The notes under the pieces were generated by a model. The model saw only the letters and a program-made list of their open reading frames with translations, was not told where the DNA came from and did no database searches. Source: a virus (Duplodnaviria > Caudoviricetes). From it: a stretch of 64,000 nucleotides of DNA. Where the stretch lies: IMG/VR virus record IMGVR_UViG_3300035208_002115. One strand, given 5' to 3'. Positions within the stretch are counted from its first letter, which is position 1. Each line of letters opens with the position of its first letter. The translations under genes and the position numbers were made by a program. This document shows positions 35,340 to 48,080 of this stretch, one piece after another.

Positions 35340-36929
35340 ATGAAGAACAACCCAATTTATGTTATAGATTTCAACGGGCAACCATTAATGCCAACATTCA
35401 GATATGGTAAGGTTCGTCATATGCTTAAAAATAACCAAGCAAAAATAATAAAAAGAGACCCATTCTTTACTATTCAATTATTAACAAACACATCGTCATA
35501 TATACAGTATATTATTGGTGGTATAGATATTGGTGAAACCGTTGGAATATCGGTAATAAACCCAAAAAATAATACTGAAATATTGTCTGCCGAATTAAAA
35601 ACACGTAGTAAAGATATTCCAGATAAACTTAAAGAAAAAACTCAATATAGAAGAACCCGAAGAAATCATTTAAGATATAGAACAAAAAGATTTGAGAATA
35701 GGAAATCTTCATTAGGTAAATGTAAAGTGTGTGGTGGTAATACTAAAAGTGGAAAAGAATTTTGCTCAACATGCTTAGATACAGTTAATGGTAATCATAA
35801 TGCTTATAAAGATATTTCTAAAACTACATCACAAAAAAGACTTGCACCAAGCGTAAATCATTTAATTGATGCCAATCATAAAATTATAAATAAAATAAAT
35901 GAAATATTACCTATTAAAGAAGAAAATTGGATATACGAAAAAGTTAAATTCGATATACAGAAAATAGAAAATATTGATATATCAGGTGTTGGATATCAGC
36001 AAGGTGATATGTTTGGTTTTTCAAGTTTGAGAGAATATATATTAGAAAGAGATGAACATACATGTCAAAACCCCAACTGTAAACATAAGAATATTAAAAA
36101 CCTAAAAAAAGGTGAAAATGTTTATTTGAAAAATAATATTACATTAGTAACACATCATATAATATTCAGACATCTTGGTGGCACAGATAAACCAAGTAAT
36201 TATATTACGTTGTGTACTGATTGTCATATACCAACAAATCATCTAAAGGGTTATTTTTTATATGATTGGTGTATAAAAAAGAAAAAAGTTAAAAGTGATT
36301 ATAAAGCTGCTACTAAAATGAATGTGGTCGCTTCTTCTTTTGATGAAAAAAAGAATTTTATACCCACGTTTGGTTCTGAAACAAAAAGAAAAAGACAATT
36401 GATTGGTTTAGATAAAACCCATTCGAATGATGCCCTTTCTATTTGTATAGATAAAAATAATTTTGATTTGATTGATGATTCTGGAAAAAAGAAAGTTGTT
36501 TTAAAACGAGATTTCAATTTAAAAAAAATAGAACATCCTGATTATCTTATTCAAACAAATGGTCGTTCTAATGGTAGACGAGCATTAAGTACATTTCAGG
36601 ATTCTAAATATATTGATATCAGAGATGGAAAAGAAAAATCAGGAAAAGAGTTATCAAAAGAAATGGATAAACGAACACTTATAAATAATAATAGAATTTA
36701 TAGGGGAAAGAAAACAAGTAAAGGTTCTTTTGTTAAAAGAACTGGTATAAGTGAATTTCCAAATAATTCAATTATCGAATTTACATATAATGGTAAACAT
36801 TTTATTAAAGTGTGTGGTGGTGTAACTGGATATAATGTATATGTTAAAGATTTCGAGAAAAAAACAGTTGCAATAAAAAAATGTAATGTAAAAATAATCT
36901 GTAAAAGAAAAGGTGTTATTAAAAAATAA
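35340..36929 (+). CDS. iscB: IscB RNA-guided endonuclease (CRISPR-associated), 529 aa
   Basis: PLMP (15-18), RuvC-I GID63, bridge helix RRTRR..RYR..RF, RuvC-II E200, HNH HH272-273/N287/H296, RuvC-III H361/D364. Confidence 0.92.
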   Translation: MKNNPIYVIDFNGQPLMPTFRYGKVRHMLKNNQAKIIKRDPFFTIQLLTNTSSYIQYIIGGIDIGETVGISVINPKNNTEILSAELKTRSKDIPDKLKEKTQYRRTRRNHLRYRTKRFENRKSSLGKCKVCGGNTKSGKEFCSTCLDTVNGNHNAYKDISKTTSQKRLAPSVNHLIDANHKIINKINEILPIKEENWIYEKVKFDIQKIENIDISGVGYQQGDMFGFSSLREYILERDEHTCQNPNCKHKNIKNLKKGENVYLKNNITLVTHHIIFRHLGGTDKPSNYITLCTDCHIPTNHLKGYFLYDWCIKKKKVKSDYKAATKMNVVASSFDEKKNFIPTFGSETKRKRQLIGLDKTHSNDALSICIDKNNFDLIDDSGKKKVVLKRDFNLKKIEHPDYLIQTNGRSNGRRALSTFQDSKYIDIRDGKEKSGKELSKEMDKRTLINNNRIYRGKKTSKGSFVKRTGISEFPNNSIIEFTYNGKHFIKVCGGVTGYNVYVKDFEKKTVAIKKCNVKIICKRKGVIKK

Positions 36930-36967
36930 TTTTTTTATATCATTATTTTTTTTATTTTTACATTTAA

Positions 36968-36976
36968 GTTCTTTGA
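36968..36976 (+). promoter_or_regulatory. boxA-like antitermination site upstream of array
   Basis: GTTCTTTGA, also at 38232 and 38585 in the tRNA cluster. Confidence 0.45.
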
Positions 36977-37032
36977 AATTTTGTTAAATATCGATTAAGC
37001 AGTCACACCTTAAAAATGCGACTTTGTAACTT

Positions 37033-37504
37033 GTTGTGTATTGCTTTCAATTAATTAAGTAATTCAGTTATATAGTTGTGTATTGCTTTCAATTGATTGG
37101 GTAACTCAGTGGAGCAATATTTATATTAAATCAAAGCAGGGTTGTGTATTGCTTTCAATTGATTGGGTAACTCAGTATAAAATAATAGAATTAGAAAAGC
37201 GGTTAAGTTGTGTATTGCTTTCAATTGATTGGGTAACTCAGTGGTTGCTATTGATGGCATCGTGTTAGCTTTGTTGTGTATTGCTTTCAATTGATTGGGT
37301 AACTCAGTTTCTTCTTAGCAAGTTTAGTCGCATTCAGTGTTGTGTATTGCTTTCAATTGATTGGGTAACTCAGTTTATATCAGGTTTTACAAATGTGGCA
37401 ACGTTGTGTATTGCTTTCAATTGATTGGGTAACTCAGTAAGATATCTATGGTGATGAACCTTGGGATAGTTGTGTATTGCTTTCAATTGATTGGGTAACT
37501 CAGT
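37033..37504 (+). CRISPR. CRISPR array: 7 identical + 1 degenerate 36-bp repeats, 6 spacers of 28-30 bp
   Basis: GTTGTGTATTGCTTTCAATTGATTGGGTAACTCAGT at 37075, 37141, 37207, 37273, 37339, 37403, 37469; 4-mismatch copy at 37033. Confidence 0.97.
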
Positions 37505-37790
37505 ATAGCAATAAACAAATCGTTGTTAATCAATCATTTGAAACTAAAATCCGATGTAAAAAATCGAATTTTTTGAACACATTTAGACTAAGAGAAAGGA
37601 TTTTTCCAATCCTAATATCTACGTTATGTTAGAATGTGGATTAAACCACAAATAGGTACGTTAGTGTGATTCCCAAGCACTATCTTCTACGGTTGTTTTT
37701 TAAACATCTCTGTGCAATAGGAGAAGTGAAAACAACAATAAACCTAACAATAACTTTGTCAAAGGGAACTAACAGGATTTATTCCTGATT
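37505..37790 (+). ncRNA. omegaRNA/HEARO-like scaffold with anti-repeat (tracr-like)
   Basis: Anti-repeat segments 37507-37518 and 37525-37543; HEARO-like blocks TAGACTAAG, CTACGTTAT, ATAGGTAC, CTACGG, TTAAACA, AAACC, ATAAC; pseudoknot TTCCC/GGGAA. Confidence 0.8.
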
Positions 37791-37818
37791 TATTGATATT
37801 TAACAATTTCAAAGAAAT

Positions 37819-37857
37819 AATAAAAGCAGATGATTTATTTATCTGCTTTTATTTTTT
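37819..37857 (+). terminator. intrinsic terminator ending the CRISPR/omegaRNA unit
   Basis: AATAAAAGCAGAT/ATCTGCTTTTATT stem plus T run. Confidence 0.7.
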
Positions 37858-37877
37858 AAAAATAATTGCAACAAAAA

Positions 37878-37908
37878 TTTGTTTATATCGTAATAAGTAT
37901 TACATTTG
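37878..37908 (+). promoter_or_regulatory. Bacteroidota-type sigmaA promoter for tRNA cluster
   Basis: TTTG - 19 nt - TACATTTG; second motif TAATATATA at 37944-37952. Confidence 0.7.
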
Positions 37909-37984
37909 CAAAGTCAAAATGGAAAAAAGTGACCTTTTTGACTTAATATATAAGAAAACAAAAACAAATTTAAAATAACGCAAA

Positions 37985-38071
37985 ATGCTACTTTGTAATT
38001 TATATAATATGTATCTTAATAACTTAGAGAATGATAAAACTCTGGGCAGGGATATACTATGTATAAGTTAA
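37985..38071 (+). CDS. putative attenuator leader peptide (28 aa)
   Basis: MLLCNLYNMYLNNLENDKTLGRDILCIS; overlaps antiterminator strand 38041-38051. Confidence 0.6.
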   Translation: MLLCNLYNMYLNNLENDKTLGRDILCIS

Positions 38072-38100
38072 AAGCGGTAAAGCATTAAAATATACAACGG

Positions 38101-38130
38101 AAACCCTGCCAGATTTGGCAGGGTTTTTTT
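38101..38130 (+). terminator. attenuator terminator hairpin
   Basis: AAACCCTGCCA-GATT-TGGCAGGGTTT plus T run, 10 nt before first tRNA. Confidence 0.8.
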
Positions 38131-38139
38131 GTTTTATAC

Positions 38140-38220
38140 GGCTTCATGGTGGAATGGCAGACACGTTAGTCTTAGGAACTAATACCGAAAGGCGTGAGGG
38201 TTCAAGTCCCTCTGAAGTCA
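38140..38220 (+). tRNA. tRNA-Leu(TAG)
   Basis: Cloverleaf; TTAGT-CT TAG GA-ACTAA; long variable arm. Confidence 0.9.
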
Positions 38221-38365
38221 CTAAAAAAAGAGTTCTTTGAAGAAATAAGGTTAGTAATCTGGACGCTTAACCAGCAGAAGGGTGAAGTTTCCTTGGAAGA
38301 AATTGATACAAACAGGCTTTGGTGGTTCTTAGCAATGTGTTGATAAAGTGACCGAAAACATAAAT

Positions 38366-38438
38366 GGAGCGTGTGGCGTAATTGGTAACGTGTATCCCTG
38401 TCACGGATAAGTTCGGGGTTCGAGTCCCCCACGCTCCG
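38366..38438 (+). tRNA. tRNA-Asp(GTC)
   Basis: GGAGCGT/ACGCTCC acceptor; TATCC-CT GTC AC-GGATA. Confidence 0.85.
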
Positions 38439-38446
38439 CTTAATTT

Positions 38447-38521
38447 GGTGCATTGGGCTTCGAGAAGGAGAACATGGTTGTCACCCATGTAAAATTAACG
38501 GATTGTCACCGTTATGCACCG
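38447..38521 (+). ncRNA. aberrant tRNA-Asp(GTC)-like RNA
   Basis: Perfect acceptor GGTGCAT/ATGCACC and GTC anticodon arm, but T-loop ATTGTCA instead of TTCRA. Confidence 0.6.
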
Positions 38522-38650
38522 CTTAAAATTCACAAAATGTGATTTACAAATTGTGAATTCTCGATTTGCTAATTGCGAATCGATGTTCTTTGACGTATTG
38601 GGAAAAGGTATTTAAAATACGCCAGTGTGGATAGGTTCACACTGGTAAAT

Positions 38651-38724
38651 GGGGGTGTAGCGTAGTTGGTTAGCGCAACTGACTGTTAATCAGTAGGTCG
38701 TAGGTTCAAGTCCTACCACCCCCG
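38651..38724 (+). tRNA. tRNA-Asn(GTT)
   Basis: Canonical cloverleaf; ACTGA-CT GTT AA-TCAGT. Confidence 0.9.
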
Positions 38725-38732
38725 CATAAAAT

Positions 38733-38817
38733 TTCGTTGTGGCAGAGTGGTCAATTGCAACAGGCTCATATCCTGTGGTTAGAAATAACTTCGTGGGTTC
38801 GAATCCCACTGACGAGA
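38733..38817 (+). tRNA. tRNA-Met/Ile2(CAT) with long variable arm
   Basis: ACAGG-CT CAT AT-CCTGT; GTGGG-TTCGAAT-CCCAC T arm. Confidence 0.75.
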
Positions 38818-38824
38818 CAATAAT

Positions 38825-38896
38825 GGACATGTAGCTCAGAGGCAGAGCGACACCCTGTTAAGGTGAGGGTCGGGATTTCGATATTCTCCTTGTCCG
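38825..38896 (+). tRNA. tRNA-Asn(GTT)
   Basis: CACC-CT GTT AA-GGTG; acceptor GGACATG/CTTGTCC. Confidence 0.8.
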
Positions 38897-38910
38897 CTTT
38901 TTAAAATATA

Positions 38911-38998
38911 TGCGAGGTGGTGTAACTGTTAACACGCTTGGCTCATAACCAAGAGACATCAAATGCTTGTGTGGGTTAGAATCCCACCTTCGCTCCCA
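38911..38998 (+). tRNA. tRNA-Met/Ile2(CAT), long variable region, encoded CCA
   Basis: CTTGG-CT CAT AA-CCAAG; T-loop TTAGAAT. Confidence 0.7.
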
Positions 38999-39095
38999 TT
39001 AACAATTTTTGTCGTAGTGGACGACAACCATTCAGGTAAGCTGGGTATCAAAATTTAACCATCAAGAAAGTGAGAGGCTTTCATTAAAAATATAT

Positions 39096-39169
39096 CGCAG
39101 GGTAGAGCAGTTGGTAGCTCGTCAGACTCATAATCTGAAGGTCGTGGCGTTCAAATCCCACCCCTGCAA
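39096..39169 (+). tRNA. tRNA-fMet(CAT)-like
   Basis: C1:A72 mismatch; TCAGA-CT CAT AA-TCTGA. Confidence 0.8.
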
Positions 39170-39175
39170 CTAAAT

Positions 39176-39247
39176 GCTCGGTTCGTATAGTGGTTAGTAC
39201 ACAACACCTTCAATGTTGTTACAGGGGTTCAATTCCCCTACCGAGTA
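39176..39247 (+). tRNA. tRNA-Glu(TTC)
   Basis: CAACA-CC TTC AA-TGTTG (C at position 33). Confidence 0.75.
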
Positions 39248-39255
39248 CAAAATTT

Positions 39256-39338
39256 GGATAGGTAGCGAAGTGGTCAAACGCAATTGACTGTAAATCAATC
39301 ACTTACGAGTTTCGCAGGTTCGAATCCTGCCCTGTCCA
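39256..39338 (+). tRNA. tRNA-Tyr(GTA)
   Basis: ATTGA-CT GTA AA-TCAAT; long variable arm. Confidence 0.9.
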
Positions 39339-39349
39339 CTTACTTAAAT

Positions 39350-39424
39350 GTTCGGTTCGTCTAACGGTCAAGGACGGCAGGTTTTCATCCTGTTAATAGG
39401 GGGGTTCGATTCCCCTACCGAATA
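39350..39424 (+). tRNA. tRNA-Glu(TTC)
   Basis: GCAGG-TT TTC AT-CCTGT. Confidence 0.85.
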
Positions 39425-39427
39425 CTA

Positions 39428-39763
39428 TTATCTCTCAGTATTAATCCAATAAGATTTGATATTTTCCTTGGCATCTTCGTCATATTCGATATATACTTCG
39501 CCTAAAGTTCTACCGTATTTTGCTAACCAAATACGTTTTTCATCGGCTAAACGATACCTGTTTTTCTTATCATATTCGACCGTTTCTATTCTATCGAGTT
39601 TACTATATAATTGTTTCTCGAATTCTTCTTTGGATATATGTTTAAATTGATTGTCTTTATGTTGTTCAACATAGGTTAAATATATAGCACGGTCAAAACG
39701 TTGTTGGTGTGTTTCACCGAAATCTTCATTTAAGAATTGGGAAAAGGATTGAACATTTTTCAT
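39428..39763 (-). CDS. hypothetical protein with capsid-targeting-like N-terminus
   Basis: Starts MKNVQSFSQFLNE; TAATATATA on minus strand at 39786-39794. Confidence 0.7.
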   Translation of the reverse strand: MKNVQSFSQFLNEDFGETHQQRFDRAIYLTYVEQHKDNQFKHISKEEFEKQLYSKLDRIETVEYDKKNRYRLADEKRIWLAKYGRTLGEVYIEYDEDAKENIKSYWINTER

Positions 39764-39842
39764 GATAAATAAAAATATTTTTTATTATATATTAAACATC
39801 TTACCATAATTTGACTATTTATAGAAAAATATTTTAATTAAT

Positions 39843-40025
39843 ATGATGGATGTTTCAGAATATAAAAGAAGAAGAAGACGTGCTTTAAAAGCAGTAAAGG
39901 CTCATACAAAATATAACAAACAAGAAGTGAAAGAATATTATGCTACTTGTAAATCCTATAAACAAACAATGGAACATTTTGGGATGACAAGTAAAGGCAC
40001 ACTTCATTGGAATTTAAATAATTAG
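39843..40025 (+). CDS. small basic HTH-like protein
   Basis: SYKQTMEHFGMTSKGTLHW resembles a helix-turn-helix. Confidence 0.55.
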   Translation: MMDVSEYKRRRRRALKAVKAHTKYNKQEVKEYYATCKSYKQTMEHFGMTSKGTLHWNLNN

Positions 40026-40108
40026 CCCTCATGTCGAAAGTTTGGTAGCCGAAGCAGTTTCAAACACTGTTGCTGAAAGGCGTGTAGGTTCGAGTCCTAC
40101 TGGGGGTA
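40025..40108 (+). tRNA. tRNA-Leu(CAA)
   Basis: GCAGT-TT CAA AC-ACTGT; long variable arm. Confidence 0.85.
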
Positions 40109-40140
40109 CATACTATATTGATAAAAAATAATAATTTTAT

Positions 40141-40995
40141 GTGATTAAAAAATGTGAGAATTATGATAAAGAAACATTAGATAAAATAATACAAAAATGT
40201 TTTTCAATAGCTGGAGTTTGTAGAGAATTAAATATAAAAGCAATTGGTGGTAATTATAAAACTATAAAATATTATATCAATGCTTATAATCTTGATATAT
40301 CACATTTTACTGGTAAAGGCTGGAATATAGGTGAAAGATATAATAACGTTAAAAATAAAATCCCTTTAAGTGAAATATTAGTTGAGAATTCCACATATAC
40401 AAATACACATTTATTAAAGAAAAGACTTGTTAAAGAAGGTTATTTTGAATATAAATGTAATGAATGTGGATTAACTGAATGGTGTAATAAACCAATTTCC
40501 TTGCATTTAGACCATATTAATGGCGATAATTTAGACCATAGAATAGAGAACCTAAGATTATTATGTCCGAATTGTCATAGTCAAACAGAAACTTACTGTT
40601 CTAAAAATAAAAAAAGTTCAAAAAATACATTAAGAATACATAATTTTATTGAAAATAAAGATTTCTTAATCAATAGAGAATCAAAGAAACAAAAACATTA
40701 TTGTGAATGTGGTAAAGAAATAGAAAAAAGGGCTAAAAAATGCAGAGAATGTTATAAAAAAGATAGAACTGAAAGTGTTAAACAAAAAAATCATTGTGCA
40801 TGTGGTAAAGTGATTAAAAATGAATCAGTGATGTGTTTGGATTGTTTACATAAACATAACAGAAAAGTGGAAAGACCATCATATGAACAATTAATTTTAG
40901 AAATTAATGAATCTTCTTATACCTCAGTGGGTAAAAAATATAATGTTGCAGCTAAAACCATTAAAAAATGGAAATTAGCTTATGAAAGAATTTAA
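40141..40995 (+). CDS. free-standing HNH (homing) endonuclease with zinc ribbons
   Basis: CNECG...LHLDHING...NLRLLCPNCHSQT; C-terminal CxCG repeats and HTH-like end. Confidence 0.85.
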   Translation: MIKKCENYDKETLDKIIQKCFSIAGVCRELNIKAIGGNYKTIKYYINAYNLDISHFTGKGWNIGERYNNVKNKIPLSEILVENSTYTNTHLLKKRLVKEGYFEYKCNECGLTEWCNKPISLHLDHINGDNLDHRIENLRLLCPNCHSQTETYCSKNKKSSKNTLRIHNFIENKDFLINRESKKQKHYCECGKEIEKRAKKCRECYKKDRTESVKQKNHCACGKVIKNESVMCLDCLHKHNRKVERPSYEQLILEINESSYTSVGKKYNVAAKTIKKWKLAYERI

Positions 40996-40999
40996 AAAC

Positions 41000-41295
41000 G
41001 CTCCTATGGTGGAATGGCAGACACGATGGACTTATACAATTTGAGTGCTTATAGAGAAATCTGTAAAGTAGAACTTGTCAAATTCGATGAAACCTATAAA
41101 ATGGTAATATCGAGCCAACCCATCTTTTTTTAGATGGAAGTGTGTAGAGAGTAGACGGCAAGCACCTAAGTCGAAAGATATGGTGAAGGTGTATTCCAGA
41201 CCACAAAATCAATTTGATGCGATGAAAGTCGTAGTGGTAAGAAAATCCATTGGGCAGTAATGTTCGTATCGGTTCAAGTCCGATTAGGAGTACCA
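41000..41295 (+). tRNA. tRNA-Leu(TAA) interrupted by a group I intron
   Basis: Exons 41000-41033 and 41242-41295 join to ATGGA-CT TAA AA-TCCAT; encoded CCA. Confidence 0.85.
41034..41241 (+). ncRNA. group I intron (208 nt, no ORF)
   Basis: U-G pair in P1 (ACTT/GAGT), R/S-like GTAGAGAGTAGACGG and AAGGTGTATTCC, terminal G; insertion after U34. Confidence 0.8.
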
Positions 41296-41361
41296 AAAAA
41301 CAGGATAACAAATGGGTTATCCTGTTTTAAAACAAAACATTTTATTTTCACTATATTAATA

Positions 41362-41706
41362 ATGCAAAACATTGATGTTTTAATTTTCATAAAAAGTATA
41401 AGAGAATCCTTTAGTAGTTCAGTAACTGTTTATACATATGGTAATTGCTACCAATTTTATGAAATATTAAAAACAATATATCCAGAAGCCGAAGCTTATT
41501 ATGATGGCAGTCATGTCTGGACAAAAATAGGTGATAAATATTATGATATAACAGGTGAATTAAAGCTTGAAGGTAAGTTTGAAAACATAAATTTAAGACC
41601 AATTGTAGATAATGAACAAATTGCATCATTATCTAAGAATAAATGGTCAGATGAAAGAAGAAAAGATTATTGTCAAGAATACAAAAACAAATTATTAAAT
41701 AAATGA
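41362..41706 (+). CDS. hypothetical phage protein
   Basis: GNCYQF...HVWTKIGDKYYDITG; start moved to 41362. Confidence 0.7.
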   Translation: MQNIDVLIFIKSIRESFSSSVTVYTYGNCYQFYEILKTIYPEAEAYYDGSHVWTKIGDKYYDITGELKLEGKFENINLRPIVDNEQIASLSKNKWSDERRKDYCQEYKNKLLNK

Positions 41707-41918
41707 AAAGAGGTACGATAGAGCAACAAGAAAGATTTTCTAAATTAGATATACAGAAAATGTATCCAAATGAATGTGAAAATTATGATATTGTAGCACT
41801 TATGGAAATGTGGCATTTATATAATAGTGAACCGAAACGTGGTGATTGGATTGATGGTAAAATAATTGAAGAAGTGACGAATGATGGGACAGCATACTTC
41901 ATCTTATTAAAGAAATAG
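41703..41918 (+). CDS. hypothetical protein
   Basis: ATGA overlap. Confidence 0.6.
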   Translation: MKRGTIEQQERFSKLDIQKMYPNECENYDIVALMEMWHLYNSEPKRGDWIDGKIIEEVTNDGTAYFILLKK

Positions 41919-41953
41919 ACAATATTTATAAAATATACTTGCAAGTCAAAGTG

Positions 41954-42069
41954 AAATACCCCAACCGAAAGACAAGTAGGTTACTGGTGCAGAGGTGGTT
42001 CGAGTCCCCGAACAGACCAAGGTCGTGCTTGGCTTGTGCAGGTTCGCAAAAAACAGTTTGGGGGTATTT
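41954..42069 (+). ncRNA. candidate structured ncRNA
   Basis: Closing stem AAATACCCCAA/TTGGGGGTATTT; internal T-loop-like GGTTCGAGTCC; GC-rich. Confidence 0.4.
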
Positions 42070-42074
42070 TTAAT

Positions 42075-42149
42075 AGTGCGTTAGTTCAGTGGTAGAATAC
42101 AAGTTTGTCACACTTGGGGTCAGGGGTTCAAATCCCCTACGCACTGCCA
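42075..42149 (+). tRNA. tRNA-Asp(GTC)
   Basis: CAAGT-TT GTC AC-ACTTG; encoded CCA. Confidence 0.9.
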
Positions 42150-42334
42150 ATGAAAGCTGATAATAAAAACAACCCTTGAATAGGTTGTAAAGGTTGCTAA
42201 ATAATGGATGAATTGCAATCTAAAACAAGAATCGACTATTTCCATTATTATTTTCAGCTTTTATTTAAAACAAAATATTTATTTTTGTATATAAATAATA
42301 AATTTTTTTAGTTTAATTAATTAAGTAATAATTT

Positions 42335-42643
42335 ATGGCACAAATACCAAATGAAGTAATTGATGTTGTTAGAAAAAAACACAACGCTCAGATAACAACA
42401 ATTGAAAATGAATTTGATAATTATATATGGAGATTATCAGCAATAATTACAGGGAGTGCTAACAGAGCTGATAGTTCAAAAATAGCCACCGAAGTATCTA
42501 AATATTTGCAATTAGTTAAAAAAGAGTTTATTCTTAATTGGTGCAATGTTGAATTCTTAGAAGCTGTTTCTCAGCATCAAAGTGATTTTTTAGATAAAAA
42601 TGGGTTTGACTCTGAAGAAGTTGTTAAAGAATTTAAATATTAA
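42335..42643 (+). CDS. hypothetical protein
   Basis: ORF downstream of AAAC-N18-TATAA (42268-42294). Confidence 0.7.
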   Translation: MAQIPNEVIDVVRKKHNAQITTIENEFDNYIWRLSAIITGSANRADSSKIATEVSKYLQLVKKEFILNWCNVEFLEAVSQHQSDFLDKNGFDSEEVVKEFKY

Positions 42644-42780
42644 AATTTATAACGGACTTTTGTTATTTCATTTTATAAATAAAAACGTTCTTTCAAATAA
42701 TCATTTCTAAAAAGTAGATTGGCCATACGAGTTAGTCGTGTCCCTTGGAGTTTCTTAGGTAAACAAAAAACACGAAACTT

Positions 42781-43170
42781 ATGGAAACAAACTATTTATT
42801 TTTAAATGATTACGCAGGGTTCACTTATGAAGCGGTTGTTGAGGACATAGTTGCCAACTATCAGGTGTCACAATCTTTTGTTGATAACTATCGTATCTTG
42901 GTGGCACATCTTTCTGGTGATGGTGGGTACGAAGAATCTTCTTATTTCTTATTGGTTGAGAAATCTACTGGTAATTTATTTGAAGTTTCTGGTGGTCACT
43001 GTTCCTGTTATGGTTTCGAAGGCCAGTTTGAGCCAGAGATTACTTCGATAGAGTATCTTATTTCAGAACAGTCCTACTTCGGTAGAGACCCTGAAGTAAA
43101 GAAACAAATCGAGATTTGTTTGGTGAAATGGATTCGTTACTTGAAATTGAAAGAAATATTCGAGTTCTAA
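42781..43170 (+). CDS. hypothetical protein with C-terminal RxxKLxxI tag
   Basis: GGHCSCYGFEGQ core; ends IRYLKLKEIFEF. Confidence 0.7.
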   Translation: METNYLFLNDYAGFTYEAVVEDIVANYQVSQSFVDNYRILVAHLSGDGGYEESSYFLLVEKSTGNLFEVSGGHCSCYGFEGQFEPEITSIEYLISEQSYFGRDPEVKKQIEICLVKWIRYLKLKEIFEF

Positions 43171-43222
43171 ATGAAAGTTTAGGACTCGATTTTTTATATA
43201 TAAAAAGAAAACAACATATTAA

Positions 43223-43780
43223 ATGATTTTTAGTTATATATCATTTATCAAAGAAAACATAAAACATCAATATAAATTTTATAAAAATATTGATAATATT
43301 GTTGATGGTGAACCATTAGTTTATTATAATGTTCCATTTGAATTAGGCGAAAAAGGTATAGGTTTTAGTGATACAGAAGATTGGAAACATTATTTAGGTA
43401 ACCAATATGTTTATGATTATATTAAAGACATTGATATAAAAGAAGCTTTAAAAGAAGACTTATCTAATATAAATATATCTGTTGATTGGACTTCTATAAA
43501 AGAAGATGATATAATAAACAATATATCAGCATATCAAAATAAAAATAAACATTCTTTAAGAATTGCCAAATTAGTTAAAGAGATGTTAGATAACAAACCA
43601 ATAAGACCAGTTTCAATGTTTTTTGATGCGATGTCGTATAATTACGATATAAAGAATAACATTGAAGATGGAAATCATAGAATAAGAGCATTACAATATT
43701 TAAAATATGATGGGTTTCCAGCTTACATATATGGTGGACATTCAAAATATCTTATTGAATATTTAAATCAAAATATTTAG
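43223..43780 (+). CDS. ParB/Srx-like domain protein; capsid-targeting-like N-terminus
   Basis: IEDGNHRIRAL motif; TTTATATATA upstream. Confidence 0.65.
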   Translation: MIFSYISFIKENIKHQYKFYKNIDNIVDGEPLVYYNVPFELGEKGIGFSDTEDWKHYLGNQYVYDYIKDIDIKEALKEDLSNINISVDWTSIKEDDIINNISAYQNKNKHSLRIAKLVKEMLDNKPIRPVSMFFDAMSYNYDIKNNIEDGNHRIRALQYLKYDGFPAYIYGGHSKYLIEYLNQNI

Positions 43781-43891
43781 ATGGGTTTTTTATCAATCTA
43801 AGCATCTATATTTATTATAGAATTTTTTTTATAATATTTTTCATATTATTTTTGGTTCATTATTTTTACTACAAACCAAAAATTTACTACT

Positions 43892-44155
43892 ATGTTTGAG
43901 AACGTGATACTTGCAGAAATAGAAGGTGTTAAATATATACTTTCTGAAGATATAAAATATGGTGATAAAGTTGTTGGGTATTTTGAAGTTGGTAAATATT
44001 GGTTAACTGATTGTATAGCGAAGAACAACTTTGATGAAGGTGACATCAAAAACCAGTTTTTGATTTTCAAAGATGGTATTAGTTGTGGTGTAGCCAACAA
44101 TCCATTCAAACACCAAAGATGGTTCAAGGTAATAGGAACTCTTAAAGAAGTATGA
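43892..44155 (+). CDS. hypothetical protein
   Basis: ORF downstream of TATTTTTG -7 element (43847). Confidence 0.65.
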   Translation: MFENVILAEIEGVKYILSEDIKYGDKVVGYFEVGKYWLTDCIAKNNFDEGDIKNQFLIFKDGISCGVANNPFKHQRWFKVIGTLKEV

Positions 44156-44210
44156 TGGTACTAATAAAATATTAGACTTCTTTTTATATATAGAAATAAA
44201 AATATTTTTT

Positions 44211-44966
44211 ATGGGGTATATTAAAAAATACGATGAAGTGGTTAATGAGCATAAATCCTCATTCAAGGTTTGTATAAAATGGGCGCATGGTGATGATGAT
44301 TTCTTCACCGATAAAATATATTATTTTTCTACTGAAGAAATGATGAGGAAGTATTTGGATTTTATTTTTGATGTTCGAAAATTTATACCAAACAGAGGTT
44401 ATAAAAATCTTGGTTATTTTGAAGATGGATACCACGAAGGAAAAGGAGAATGGGTTCGAAAAATAGCTGAAAAACACAATCCAGAATTTATTGATTATAT
44501 GGAGATTGACGGGTCTGGCCCAAGTGACCATTATGCAAATATTGAAGACATTTATGTTAAAATAGGTAATAAAAGAAAATTTATCGTCTGGTCAGAAGCA
44601 TTAAATACTAACATTATAAGTTTACCAGAAAAAGGTTCTATAATAGATACCAATTCTGGACAAATATGTGGACATGGTAAATACACATTTGGTGGTAAAA
44701 CCAGTGACTATTTATACCATTGGGATTTGAAAAAAATATATGATGAGAAAAAAGAAGGTAAATATACCCCAATGAAACTTGAAATATTAGATATTAAGAT
44801 AGCTAATTATAGCAATTATATTAAAGATTATGACGCTTTTAAATACGAGGTGTTGTGTAAGATACCAGAAGGATTAGTAACAACCGAAATTGATGGATAC
44901 GACCCAGATTTTGAGAAAAAGTATAATAAAGAAAAGTGGGATGGTATGTCACTATATTTAGTTTAG
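44211..44966 (+). CDS. hypothetical protein with capsid-targeting-like N-terminus
   Basis: Starts MGYIKKYDEVVNE; TTTATATATA at 44183-44192. Confidence 0.7.
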   Translation: MGYIKKYDEVVNEHKSSFKVCIKWAHGDDDFFTDKIYYFSTEEMMRKYLDFIFDVRKFIPNRGYKNLGYFEDGYHEGKGEWVRKIAEKHNPEFIDYMEIDGSGPSDHYANIEDIYVKIGNKRKFIVWSEALNTNIISLPEKGSIIDTNSGQICGHGKYTFGGKTSDYLYHWDLKKIYDEKKEGKYTPMKLEILDIKIANYSNYIKDYDAFKYEVLCKIPEGLVTTEIDGYDPDFEKKYNKEKWDGMSLYLV

Positions 44967-45082
44967 CGCATATTTTTGATTATATCATATTCAGCGCATA
45001 TTTTTATCATAGGATTTTTTTTACAGAACATTTCTTAATATTTTTGGTATGTTAATTTTATTACAAACCAAAAAGTTCTGAT

Positions 45083-45274
45083 ATGAAAAGGATTAGAAAA
45101 TTTAAAGTTACTTCGACCTTAAAAAGTGGTAAGACAGTAAGTCAGCCGTCTTTTGGTAGAAAAGATTTAAATGTTGTAATTTCAGCTTTAATATCAGATG
45201 TGGATGTAGAATCAGTGAACATTTCCAAGGAAGGTTTTGCCGATGCATCAGATATTAAGATTTGGAATTTATAA
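45083..45274 (+). CDS. hypothetical protein
   Basis: ORF downstream of TATTTTTG (45039). Confidence 0.6.
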   Translation: MKRIRKFKVTSTLKSGKTVSQPSFGRKDLNVVISALISDVDVESVNISKEGFADASDIKIWNL

Positions 45275-45291
45275 TTTAAAAATATACTGAT

Positions 45292-45513
45292 ATGAAAACA
45301 CCGTTGAAATTCTACATTGGTGAAAGGAGTAATCCACAGTTAAAAAAGTCTTATTTTGTTACCTATGGCAGGTTAACAAAAAAGGATGCTCAGAAAAAGG
45401 AAGATTGTCTTTACGGCAGTATGTCTTTAACCCCGTATGAAACCGAGGAAGAATATAACACTGCAATATCAAAACTGGAAGAAGAAGGGTTTAATATTAA
45501 AAATAGTGTTTGA
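45292..45513 (+). CDS. hypothetical protein
   Basis: Packed ORF. Confidence 0.65.
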   Translation: MKTPLKFYIGERSNPQLKKSYFVTYGRLTKKDAQKKEDCLYGSMSLTPYETEEEYNTAISKLEEEGFNIKNSV

Positions 45514-45516
45514 GTC

Positions 45517-45804
45517 ATGAAAAAAGTAAGACTAATGAAACGGGTTATGAAATGTTTGATGATTTTTGTAGTATTGTCAATAGTTTCTATGATGTACATT
45601 GCTTTTAACTTCGAAGCGTATAGAGGTATTACGTTTTTACTATCGAGTTTATCGATTTTAACTACTGCTGTTATATTTTACACTTTTTATCTGGTTGTAA
45701 AATATGTCTTGAATCTTGACCAAGATACAGAAAAATCGGAAGATGTTGGTAATATATTAATGTCTTTTGTTTACAACGGGAAGAAACATATTAAAATTGT
45801 TTAA
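45517..45804 (+). CDS. small membrane protein
   Basis: Two hydrophobic helices. Confidence 0.6.
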   Translation: MKKVRLMKRVMKCLMIFVVLSIVSMMYIAFNFEAYRGITFLLSSLSILTTAVIFYTFYLVVKYVLNLDQDTEKSEDVGNILMSFVYNGKKHIKIV

Positions 45805-45806
45805 CT

Positions 45807-45998
45807 ATGAATATATTTAATTTTTTCAAAAGAAATTCATCATTTGAAATAGGTGAATATGTTCGCTTAGATAAAGGAAAAAGTAGTGACCAATTGGTTA
45901 AATTGACTGAAATATATGATGGTGGTAAGGTTTGTTATATTGAAGGACACTATTGGTCTGGTACAGTGGATATGAAACGAATAAGTAAAGAGGTATGA
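45807..45998 (+). CDS. hypothetical protein
   Basis: Packed ORF. Confidence 0.6.
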   Translation: MNIFNFFKRNSSFEIGEYVRLDKGKSSDQLVKLTEIYDGGKVCYIEGHYWSGTVDMKRISKEV

Positions 45999-46297
45999 AA
46001 AAATTAAAAGATATCAAGTACGAAATACTTAATGATATACTTATTGTAGTATTCATTTTAAGCCAAGTAATACCCATTGTGTGGATGGGTGTATATTTGT
46101 ATAAGAATAGTGATAGGGTAGAGGAATATTACACAGTTACAGTCTCCAATATTGATGCTGACCATGTTATAATGAATAAGAGATTAGATGGTTATGAATT
46201 AATAGGTCGGGATTATTGTCAAAATGGTGAGCCAAATGAATTATATTCTGGTGATAATATGGTTACTATTTCGATGATTAAATTGAAAAACCCATAA
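45995..46297 (+). CDS. hypothetical membrane-anchored protein
   Basis: One hydrophobic helix. Confidence 0.6.
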   Translation: MKKLKDIKYEILNDILIVVFILSQVIPIVWMGVYLYKNSDRVEEYYTVTVSNIDADHVIMNKRLDGYELIGRDYCQNGEPNELYSGDNMVTISMIKLKNP

Positions 46298-46304
46298 CAA
46301 AAAC

Positions 46305-46385
46305 GGTGGAATGCCTGAGTGGTTGAAGGGGGCGGTCTGCAAAACCGCTACGAAAGTCTCGTGGGTTCGAATCCCACTTCCACCT
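46305..46385 (+). tRNA. tRNA-Cys(GCA) with extended variable arm
   Basis: GCGGT-CT GCA AA-ACCGC; U73 discriminator. Confidence 0.85.
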
Positions 46386-46404
46386 CAAAACAAAAATTAT
46401 CAAT

Positions 46405-46659
46405 ATGACACCAGAAGATGTTCTAAAAAATTGCATTAAATTCGAGGTTAAAGATTTTGAACGAATCTTTATAGAATCTGGATATAAAAGTTCTGATAGT
46501 GTAATAAGTTTAGAGGATGCTATGTCAGCTATAAAAGAATATATGGAATATGCTGATAATGTTGCTCTACATTGTATCCAGTTGGCGACAAATTTAAACT
46601 ATGGTAGTAGATGCTCACTGGAATATTTGCAGAAAGCAAAAGATAAAATGAAAAAGTAA
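46405..46659 (+). CDS. hypothetical protein
   Basis: ORF. Confidence 0.6.
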   Translation: MTPEDVLKNCIKFEVKDFERIFIESGYKSSDSVISLEDAMSAIKEYMEYADNVALHCIQLATNLNYGSRCSLEYLQKAKDKMKK

Positions 46660-46757
46660 AAAGAAAGGAGAATACAAATTATGATTGATTTTAGTTAGAT
46701 ACTCACCTACGTGGTGAGTTTTTTATTACGTATTATTAAAAAATTAAATACTAAAAA

Positions 46758-47408
46758 ATGAAACAATATCCACACATAGAGTATTGGAATCAATGTAAGT
46801 TTGGTTCTACCATCTGGGGATTTGATAAATTAGATGGCTCTAATATCCGAGCCGAGTGGAGAAAAAAAAGAGGGTTTTATAAATTCGGGACTAAACAACA
46901 AATGATTGATACCCGACACCCACAATTCGGTGAAGCTGTCACACTATTTCTAAACAAGTATAATGAAGGGTTATCTAAAATATTCACTGATGATAAGTAT
47001 TACAGAAACGTTCAAAACTTTGTAGTATTTTCAGAATATTTTGGTGAAAATTCATTTGCTGGATATCATATACCAGAAGATAAAAAAGACATTTTACTTT
47101 TCGATATCAGCCTTTATAAAAAAGGTTGGGTTAAACCAAAAGACTTTATAAACGATTTTGAGCATCTTGGGATACCAAGACTAATATATCATGGTAATTA
47201 TAATAAAAAGCTTATACGTGATGTAAAAGAAGGTATTTTTGATGTAAAAGAAGGTATAGTCGTTAAAGGTTTAAGACAAACAAAAGGTGACGAACTGGTT
47301 TGGTTAACTAAAATAAAGACCAATGAATGGTTAAAAAGATTGAAGAACAAATTCGGTGAGAAGTATCTTTTGAAAGAAGTAAATTACGATAAAGAATTGT
47401 TAGATTAA
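46758..47408 (+). CDS. RNA ligase-like nucleotidyltransferase
   Basis: Motif I KLDGSN, EYFG, FDI, EGIVVK, KIKT. Confidence 0.75.
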   Translation: MKQYPHIEYWNQCKFGSTIWGFDKLDGSNIRAEWRKKRGFYKFGTKQQMIDTRHPQFGEAVTLFLNKYNEGLSKIFTDDKYYRNVQNFVVFSEYFGENSFAGYHIPEDKKDILLFDISLYKKGWVKPKDFINDFEHLGIPRLIYHGNYNKKLIRDVKEGIFDVKEGIVVKGLRQTKGDELVWLTKIKTNEWLKRLKNKFGEKYLLKEVNYDKELLD

Positions 47409-47438
47409 TATGGGTGGGCTTTATGCCCACTCAAATAT

Positions 47439-47524
47439 GGATAGGTAGCAAAGTGGTTAAATGCGCTTGACTGTAAATCAAGTCCCTTCGGGGTTCGTAG
47501 GTTCGAATCCTACCCTGTCCACCA
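47439..47524 (+). tRNA. tRNA-Tyr(GTA)
   Basis: CTTGA-CT GTA AA-TCAAG; encoded CCA. Confidence 0.9.
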
Positions 47525-47528
47525 ATAT

Positions 47529-47611
47529 GAGTAGGTATGCAAATGGCGAAGCAAGCGGTCTGTAAAACCGTGACGTAAGAGACACTGGGGGTTCAAATCC
47601 CTCTCTACTCA
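47529..47611 (+). tRNA. tRNA-Tyr(GTA)
   Basis: GCGGT-CT GTA AA-ACCGT. Confidence 0.85.
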
Positions 47612-47708
47612 CTTTTAAATATCCTTTTACCCATACATGTCAATTATATCCCATAAAAATATTATTTCTTAATATATTTTTTCATATTTTTGTTTAATAA
47701 AACATGAT

Positions 47709-48080
47709 ATGGAATATATTACTATTACTGAGTATAGGGATGAAAAAATAGACAGGACTATCAGTAAGTCTTTGAATGATTATGTAGACTCATCAATAAA
47801 AAAATTAAAAGATGAGCTTATAGCCAATGAGTTCTCGATAAAATGTAAAAGAATAAATTCAAATTTATATCATTCTATTGGTGTTTGGGGTGTTTGGGGT
47901 GTATATGGTGATTTGAATTACAAAATAAAAAATTCAAAAATTTATTATGTTCAAATATCGTGGCGGGTATCGCATCAAATGAAATTGTATGTATTTACAC
48001 AATATAAAAAATTTGACACATATATAAATTCACTGGAAAGAGAGAGGGTTTTGAAAATAGAAGAATTAGAAATACTATGA
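47709..48080 (+). CDS. paralog-array protein with C-terminal tag
   Basis: Ends ERVLKIEELEIL. Confidence 0.7.
   Translation: MEYITITEYRDEKIDRTISKSLNDYVDSSIKKLKDELIANEFSIKCKRINSNLYHSIGVWGVWGVYGDLNYKIKNSKIYYVQISWRVSHQMKLYVFTQYKKFDTYINSLERERVLKIEELEIL

Follow-up and report, generated by a model that had tools for sequence, protein, structure and literature searches.

What controls the transcription of tRNA genes carried by a phage is the question raised by a locus in the IMG/VR virus record IMGVR_UViG_3300035208_002115 (Duplodnaviria; Caudoviricetes), where a short open reading frame (ORF) and a strong terminator stand between a promoter and the first gene of a tRNA array. Phage tRNAs are usually discussed as constitutive cargo, which either compensates for codon usage or takes the place of tRNAs that host defences have cleaved. 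The stretch analysed, referred to below as the window, comprises 64,000 nucleotides (bases 93370-157369) of a 675,678-bp single-contig record whose G+C content is 27%. The promoters of this 676-kb phage are of the Bacteroidota type, and the nearest named kin found to carry the same leader device is Prevotella phage Lak-B2. The short ORF, here termed leader A, very probably belongs to a ribosome-mediated leader-peptide transcription attenuator that gates the tRNA array behind it (array A). The evidence on leaders, arrays and pairings is computational throughout; within that scope, the anatomy of the locus, the match of leader codons to tRNAs, the co-variation of the two across phages and the co-varying alternative pairings are observed.

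Leader A and its tRNA array

An earlier note on this DNA, made from the letters alone, had recognized the geometry of trp/his-type attenuation, and the order of promoter, ORF, antiterminator, terminator and tRNA is indeed the classical one. The elements are as follows (window coordinates).

37878..37908, plus strand: Bacteroidota-type promoter, consisting of TTTG, a 19-nt spacer and TACATTTG
37921..37953, plus strand: 5′ hairpin (GGAAAAAA..TTTTT), present in the minimum free energy fold, then AATATATAA
37985..38071, plus strand: leader ORF, with ATG at 37985, 28 sense codons and TAA at 38069-38071
37988..38035, plus strand: polled regulatory codons 2-17, equivalent to region 1 (five Leu, five Asn, two Tyr and one each of Cys, Met, Glu and Asp)
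37996..38070, plus strand: predicted region 1:2 hairpin (anti-antiterminator), in which codons 4-15 pair with codons 19-29
38041..38051, plus strand: antiterminator strand, region 2 (codons 19-23), with the core GGCAGGG at 38045-38051
38099..38137, plus strand: intrinsic terminator, with 5′ arm 38101-38111 (region 3), loop 38112-38115, 3′ arm 38116-38126 (region 4) and T-run
38140..38221, plus strand: tRNA-Leu(tag), first gene of array A
38366..39425, plus strand: contiguous array of Asp (two), Asn, Met, Asn, Met (two), Glu, Tyr and Glu tRNA genes
40025..47612, plus strand: dispersed continuation of the array among plus-strand ORFs, including one for an HNH endonuclease (Leu(caa) at 40025, Asp at 42075, Cys at 46305 and two Tyr at 47439-47612)

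The 28-codon ORF, the terminator and the antiterminator strand thus all lie where the earlier note had placed them, between the promoter at 37878-37908 and the first tRNA. That note had proposed two promoters; the first stands, as the sole strict match of its form on the plus strand between 36900 and 48000, and the second (37944-37952) belongs instead to the conserved motif formed by the 5′ hairpin and AATATATAA. The ORF, which is on the same strand as the array and starts 155 nt ahead of it, is preceded by an A-rich stretch and has no Shine-Dalgarno sequence. The terminator has a G+C-rich stem of 13 pairs (38099-38128), and the hairpin alone is predicted at -18.0 kcal/mol. The gap between its T-run and the start of tRNA-Leu(tag) at 38140 is ∼10 nt, leaving no room for a separate promoter, and no second strict Bacteroidota-type promoter is present on the plus strand from 36900 to 48000; transcription of the tRNAs from a promoter downstream of the terminator is accordingly not indicated. 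Rfam covariance models, including the Trp, His, Thr, Leu and other leader families and the T-box, gave no match in 37880-38139 at E values up to 1.

The window contains 16 tRNA genes with the specificities Leu, Asp, Asn, Met, Glu, Tyr and Cys, and codons 1-17 of leader A are confined to Met, Leu, Cys, Asn, Tyr, Glu and Asp, the same seven specificities. This restriction, already pointed out from the window, proves to be the longest in the genome: the 17-codon run is the unique maximum for that set of amino acids over six frames (∼1.35 million codon positions), the next runs having 13, 13 and 12 codons. Sixteen of the 18 regulatory codons encode amino acids of the array, and 12 of the 18 have a strict-wobble reader within it. 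The broader claim, that the tRNAs polled are exactly those carried by the phage, does not hold, because the 40 tRNA genes of the genome serve all 20 amino acids, with a tRNA of anticodon tta in addition (ARAGORN), so that the match is true only of the array that leader A precedes. Asn, Tyr and Leu codons are common in DNA of 27% G+C, and the match could on that account be put down to the chance composition of AT-rich sequence; codons for Lys, Ile and Phe are equally AT-rich, however, and are absent from the run. With the genome-wide rank of the run and the further leaders described below also taken into account, we give this explanation practically no credence.

Array A is scattered over 9.5 kb, probably because of HNH-type insertions. 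HNH endonuclease ORFs are found within or at the head of tRNA arrays both in the window (40141-40995, plus strand) and elsewhere in the genome (∼647700-647310, minus strand). The 145-nt spacer between tRNA-Leu and tRNA-Asp (38222-38365) is kept in a relative of the phage, G001; since it starts like the tRNA-Ser(tga) found behind another leader of this genome (leader D, below), it may be a decayed tRNA or some other structured RNA. The tRNA(tta) gene called by ARAGORN lies outside the window (genome 37754-37827, minus strand) and its product would read TAA. Read-through of TAA would change leader A little, because the stop codon of leader A is TAA and a second TAA follows three codons on.

Two further leaders in the same genome

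Two further leaders, B and D, provide replicates within the same genome and are preceded by promoters of the same build as that of leader A. Leader B (genome ∼608676, minus strand) consists of a promoter, the 5′ hairpin with AATATATAA, a short ORF and a terminator, followed by tRNA genes. Array B (minus strand, 608458-605885) encodes, in order, Thr, Gly, Ala, Gln, Pro, Gln, Pro, Thr, Arg(cct), Arg(tct) and Gly tRNAs, and in the 44-codon ORF of leader B, 24 of the 28 regulatory codons specify Thr, Ala, Pro, Gln, Gly or Arg, exactly the specificities of that array. These codons are G+C-rich despite the 27% G+C content of the genome, and it is difficult to see how a chance effect of AT-rich sequence would have produced the same rule here.

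In leader D (genome 648092, minus strand), codons 3-24 specify no amino acids other than Lys, Ser, Phe, His, Ile, Val, Arg and Trp, and this 22-codon run is again the genome-wide maximum for its amino-acid set. Behind leader D are a probable tRNA-Ser(tga), an inserted HNH gene and then tRNA genes for Trp, Ile, Val, His, Ser, Phe, Lys, Phe, Lys, Ile(tat), Arg(acg) and Ser(gct). The probable tRNA-Ser(tga) is a weak type-II tRNA match in this genome and is called by ARAGORN at the homologous site in two relatives; the HNH insertion parts leader D and this first tRNA from the remaining array by ∼0.8 kb.

When each of the three leaders is compared with each of the three arrays, the match is 0.86-0.89 for a leader with its own array and 0.06-0.14 for the other combinations, and the sets of leaders A, B and D jointly cover all 20 amino acids. 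The correspondence extends to isoacceptors: Arg is encoded as AGG and AGA in leader B, with tRNA-Arg(cct) and tRNA-Arg(tct) in its array, and as CGC in leader D, with tRNA-Arg(acg), while leader D also contains both ATT and ATA with tRNA-Ile(gat) and tRNA-Ile(tat). Rfam searches of leaders B and D at E values up to 0.5 returned only a meaningless match to MicC (E 0.41).

Co-variation of leaders and arrays across phages

All three leaders are carried by the relative G001 (640 kb), in which leader A retains its 28 codons despite ∼40% nucleotide change and in-frame codon insertions and deletions. Its regulatory part has diverged and the flanks of the GGCAGGG core have changed, while the 5′ untranslated region (UTR), the core itself and the terminator (100% identical) are invariant. 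This pattern suggests selection on composition and frame and not on peptide sequence. Three of the four changes between the regulatory regions of leader B in the two genomes are synonymous. The G001 copy of leader B further contains an inserted ORF of ∼130 codons (L004 ∼1100-1490), which parts its host-type promoter from its 5′ hairpin.

Further members of the family were sought in IMG/VR by means of the degenerate 5′ motif, and those with a same-strand tRNA array within 1 kb were kept, giving 20 non-redundant leaders and, with the three described here, a co-variation set of 23, some of whose arrays were extended before matching. Exact-match scans of IMG/VR with the terminator, 5′ hairpin and UTR recovered one close relative only, and blastn of the three leaders against GenBank phages gave no match in the leader parts; the GenBank examples given below were reached through their tRNAs. 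All 23 leaders possess a short ATG-initiated ORF and a terminator, with ∼18-34 nt separating stop codon and terminator in 22 of them. The ORF is thus conserved, both in its unchanged length in G001 and in its presence throughout the 23 related leaders and in three GenBank phages.

The mean match of a leader to its own array is 0.68 at the amino-acid level and 0.58 for strict-wobble codons, compared with 0.31 and 0.26 when arrays are permuted; none of 20,000 permutations reaches the observed values (z 7.7 for amino acids and 7.6 for codons), statistics that overstate independence because the leaders are related by descent. The comparison that the earlier note had proposed, of leader codons with tRNA content in related phages, is therefore strongly positive, and a chance origin in AT-rich sequence is rejected by this permutation test together with the genome-wide maximum run.

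The co-variation can be followed through individual amino acids whose tRNA genes have changed company. Val belongs to a Thr/Ala/Gly array in L011, L014 and L062 and to the Lys/His/Trp array in the present phage; Ile joins the Asp/Asn/Tyr set in L073 and L053; Gln joins Glu and Met in L067; and Leu is found in the acidic group only in the phage studied here. In each case the leaders follow. Contig G004 separates even the Ile isoacceptors, having an ATT leader ahead of tRNA-Ile(gat) and a separate ATA leader ahead of tRNA-Ile(tat). The rule relating leader to array is also obeyed, with other groupings, by three huge phages in GenBank. In LR745206.1 an Asn/Arg/Leu/Val/Ile/Thr/Met array reads 22 of the 24 codons in positions 2-25 of the leader; in LR756501.1 a Leu-only array (tag, gag, caa and taa) is preceded by a leader that holds all six Leu codons; and in Prevotella phage Lak-B2 the leader of one long mixed array polls most of the specificities of that array. 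The cultured crAss-like Bacteroides phage PhiCrAssBcn9 encodes a 23-tRNA array without a leader ORF or terminator (L120 7650-7772), a Bacteroidota-type promoter being located directly ahead of the first tRNA, and the device is hence not general among Bacteroidota phages.

Because leader A has its own promoter and a strong terminator, it would be expected to yield a stable RNA of ∼220 nt, and attenuator RNAs able to act in trans have been described in other bacteria (PMC6614838). The unit from promoter to terminator might accordingly be an independent gene for a small RNA or small protein, with the array produced from another promoter or by processing and the codon match having no regulatory role. 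We consider this highly improbable, given that tRNA-Leu begins ∼10 nt past the T-run, with no other strict promoter nearby, that the composition of the peptide is kept and its sequence is not, and that such a gene would leave the co-variation of codons with tRNAs over 26 leaders unexplained.

Alternative pairing of the leader transcripts

Attenuation would require that the leader RNA can adopt two exclusive structures. In leader A, GGCAGGG (38045-38051) is the exact complement of CCCTGCC (38104-38110) in the 5′ arm of the terminator, and the duplex formed by the antiterminator strand and this arm is predicted at -15.9 kcal/mol, compared with a mean of -8.1 kcal/mol for cross-leader combinations, which bears out the mutually exclusive antiterminator that the earlier note had described. 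Across the family, the pairing of antiterminator and terminator averages -12.6 kcal/mol within a leader and -7.5 kcal/mol between leaders, and the stems differ from one family to another. The pairing segment is located in the last third of each ORF, and the leader's own combination ranks at or near the top, close homologues aside. Compensatory differences are seen, such as TTCGGGG/CCCCGAA vs. ATCGGGG/CCCCGAT.

The region 1:2 pairing is also predicted. When the ORF of leader A is folded by itself, codons 4-15 pair with codons 19-29 (-23.5 kcal/mol, z -3.0), and seven of the nine antiterminator bases are paired upstream in this hairpin; in the absence of a ribosome, a corresponding pairing is predicted for 20 of the 23 leaders (mean z -2.5). 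With the 1:2, 2:3 and 3:4 pairings all predicted, the four regions of a classical attenuator are present.

The effect of a ribosome was modelled by masking a 30-nt footprint at each codon and folding the transcript as far as the terminator loop. Region 2 is predicted to be free for region 3 only with the A-site on codons 1-16 in leader A, 1-26 in leader B and approximately 1-22 in leader D, the antiterminator strand of leader A being covered from A-site codon 17 onward. The polled runs end at codons 17, 28 and 24, respectively. They thus end where a stalled ribosome starts to cover the antiterminator, as would be expected if read-through has to follow from a stall at any position in the run.

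Proposed mechanism

From this anatomy we infer that the leader is translated, in which direction the switch operates and what triggers it. Transcription would begin at the Bacteroidota-type promoter, and the leader ORF would be translated while the transcript is being synthesized. Slow decoding within codons 2-17, due to a scarcity of charged Leu, Asn, Tyr, Cys, Met, Glu or Asp tRNA, would stall the ribosome on region 1. GGCAGGG would then pair with the 5′ arm of the terminator and block formation of the terminator, allowing RNA polymerase to enter tRNA-Leu and the rest of the array. With smooth decoding, the ribosome would cover region 2, or region 2 would re-pair with region 1, and the terminator would form ∼10 nt ahead of the first tRNA. 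With the array as the source of tRNAs for the polled codons, the outcome would be a negative feedback loop.

Beyond the terminator, the progress of polymerase through the array may be aided by boxA-like elements.

38232..38240, plus strand: boxA-like GTTCTTTGA, so named from its resemblance to boxA; a second copy is at 38585-38593

The three tRNA arrays account for 1.5% of strand space and contain, on their sense strand, eight of the 20 genome copies of GTTCTTTGA, a ∼27-fold concentration, and a similar motif is found behind the terminator in most related leaders. This distribution fits a long untranslated transcription unit that would start at the leader promoter.

Several observations weigh against attenuation of this kind, beyond the shared descent of the leaders mentioned above. 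Leader A of G001 keeps its Asn, Tyr and Cys codons, and ARAGORN detects no Asn, Tyr or Cys tRNA within 9 kb of it in that genome, its own-array match being 0.50. In the present phage, the two TTA and two CTT codons of leader A have no strict-wobble reader in array A; Cys, Met, Glu and Asp are polled by a single codon each; and the sole tRNA-Cys gene is situated 8.3 kb downstream, past several ORFs. With regard to structure, the equilibrium fold prefers the 2:3 pairing even in the absence of a ribosome when the 3′ arm of the terminator is withheld, and a ribosome positioned on the stop codon leaves region 2 just behind its footprint and not under it. A state in which termination is the default consequently rests on kinetic and steric arguments.

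The two structural observations also mean that efficient translation could in principle antiterminate, and the same anatomy might then serve a different or opposite logic, in which translation licenses read-through when decoding is good (a positive feedback or commitment switch) or mainly shields the transcript from Rho. The boxA-like elements, which suggest that protection of untranslated transcript matters, also favour such a logic. The polled runs nevertheless extend just to the point at which region 2 would start to be covered by a stalled ribosome, the predicted region 1:2 pairing recurs across leaders as it does in classical read-through upon stalling, and a pure Rho shield would need no codons matched to the array. 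We therefore judge such a logic improbable, and stall-induced read-through is the preferred interpretation.

If leaders B and D act likewise on the other two arrays, the phage would monitor all 20 amino acids in three channels. A more tentative proposal, which we consider possible and rather doubtful, is that the three leaders constitute a phage-borne three-channel monitor of the decoding pool, in which an array is fired when the host tRNAs of that group are lost. Possible causes of such a loss include anticodon-nuclease defences, degradation of host RNA induced by the phage, or a mismatch between the host tRNAs and the AT-rich codons of the phage.

Comparison with known systems

In logic and anatomy, the closest systems are the multivalent ilvGMEDA (Leu/Val/Ile) and thr (Thr/Ile) leaders, which have a short translated leader specifying several amino acids, the 1:2, 2:3 and 3:4 pairings, a terminator just ahead of the genes and read-through upon stalling, the same arrangement as that proposed for the phage leaders. 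The phage leaders differ from these in preceding tRNA genes and not genes for biosynthetic enzymes, in polling six to eight specificities each, and in that three paralogous leaders partition all 20 amino acids. They further differ in belonging to a phage of a Bacteroidota-type host, in lacking a Shine-Dalgarno sequence, and in having region 2 inside the ORF, 18-28 nt ahead of the stop codon. The four-region logic and the use of regulatory codons cognate to the product of the operon are shared with trpL and hisL, whereas those leaders poll a single amino acid by tandem codons and have their stop codon ahead of region 2. In addition, trpL and hisL sense the supply of an amino acid via its charged tRNA, while in the phage the operon itself supplies the tRNA.

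In purpose, the closest systems are the pheST leader and the T-boxes. The pheM leader peptide of Escherichia coli mediates attenuation of pheST, which encodes phenylalanyl-tRNA synthetase, a component of decoding and not of a biosynthetic pathway; pheST involves one synthetase, one polled amino acid and no tRNA genes, unlike the phage leaders. T-boxes similarly couple genes for translation supply to the state of specific tRNAs by a choice between terminator and antiterminator, although they need no ribosome and contact uncharged tRNA themselves by means of a specifier codon and the T-box sequence, whereas the phage codons lie in an ATG-started frame and no T-box match is found. The resemblance of GTTCTTTGA to boxA, and its concentration in untranslated arrays past the attenuator, recall the boxA/Nus antitermination of rRNA operons, where boxA is not known to be combined with a leader-peptide attenuator. 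A full-text literature search, of incomplete coverage and hence no proof of absence, found no published description of attenuation of phage or cellular tRNA genes.

Other features of the region

The small, A/U 5′ hairpin of the leader A transcript and the AATATATAA that follows it occur in four copies in the genome, one of them ahead of a gene of ∼500 aa. This fourth copy is outside the window (genome 545013, minus strand) and has no host-type promoter in front of it. Its position before a protein gene makes the motif look like a general phage 5′-UTR or promoter module, and the degenerate form of the motif was detected in 99 IMG/VR stretches, most of which have no tRNAs behind it. As a conserved 5′-UTR module, the 5′ hairpin with AATATATAA is not confined to tRNA leaders.

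Upstream of the leader promoter, the following feature was read from the sequence.

37822..37857, plus strand: terminator-like hairpin with a T-run, which would close the upstream unit (an IscB/HEARO-like region) and isolate the leader promoter

The upstream region includes a 529-aa ORF with RRXRR and HNH domains (IscB-like; window 35340-36929, plus strand) and a HEARO/omega-RNA-like match (37575-37773, plus strand) that scores 67 bits, below the Rfam cut-off of 83, with an E value of 5e-12. The HEARO-like RNA lies ∼650 nt downstream of the IscB-like ORF and is followed by the terminator and not by a nuclease gene. Together the two may represent an IscB element, orphaned or rearranged, immediately ahead of the leader promoter.

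Implications for phage tRNA expression

A leader that mirrors its array would mean that the phage gauges decoding speed codon by codon and makes only those tRNAs that are in short supply, forming, if the attenuator reading is true, a closed feedback loop with the ribosome as sensor. The scope of classical attenuation would thereby widen to include tRNA genes, Bacteroidota-type hosts and up to eight specificities in a single leader, and the leaders would offer a compact, programmable sensor of tRNA availability, examples of which are at hand in the named genomes Prevotella phage Lak-B2, LR745206.1 and LR756501.1. The monitor with three channels, if true, would go beyond housekeeping feedback and provide the phage with an inducible counter-defence or a self-tuning translation supply.

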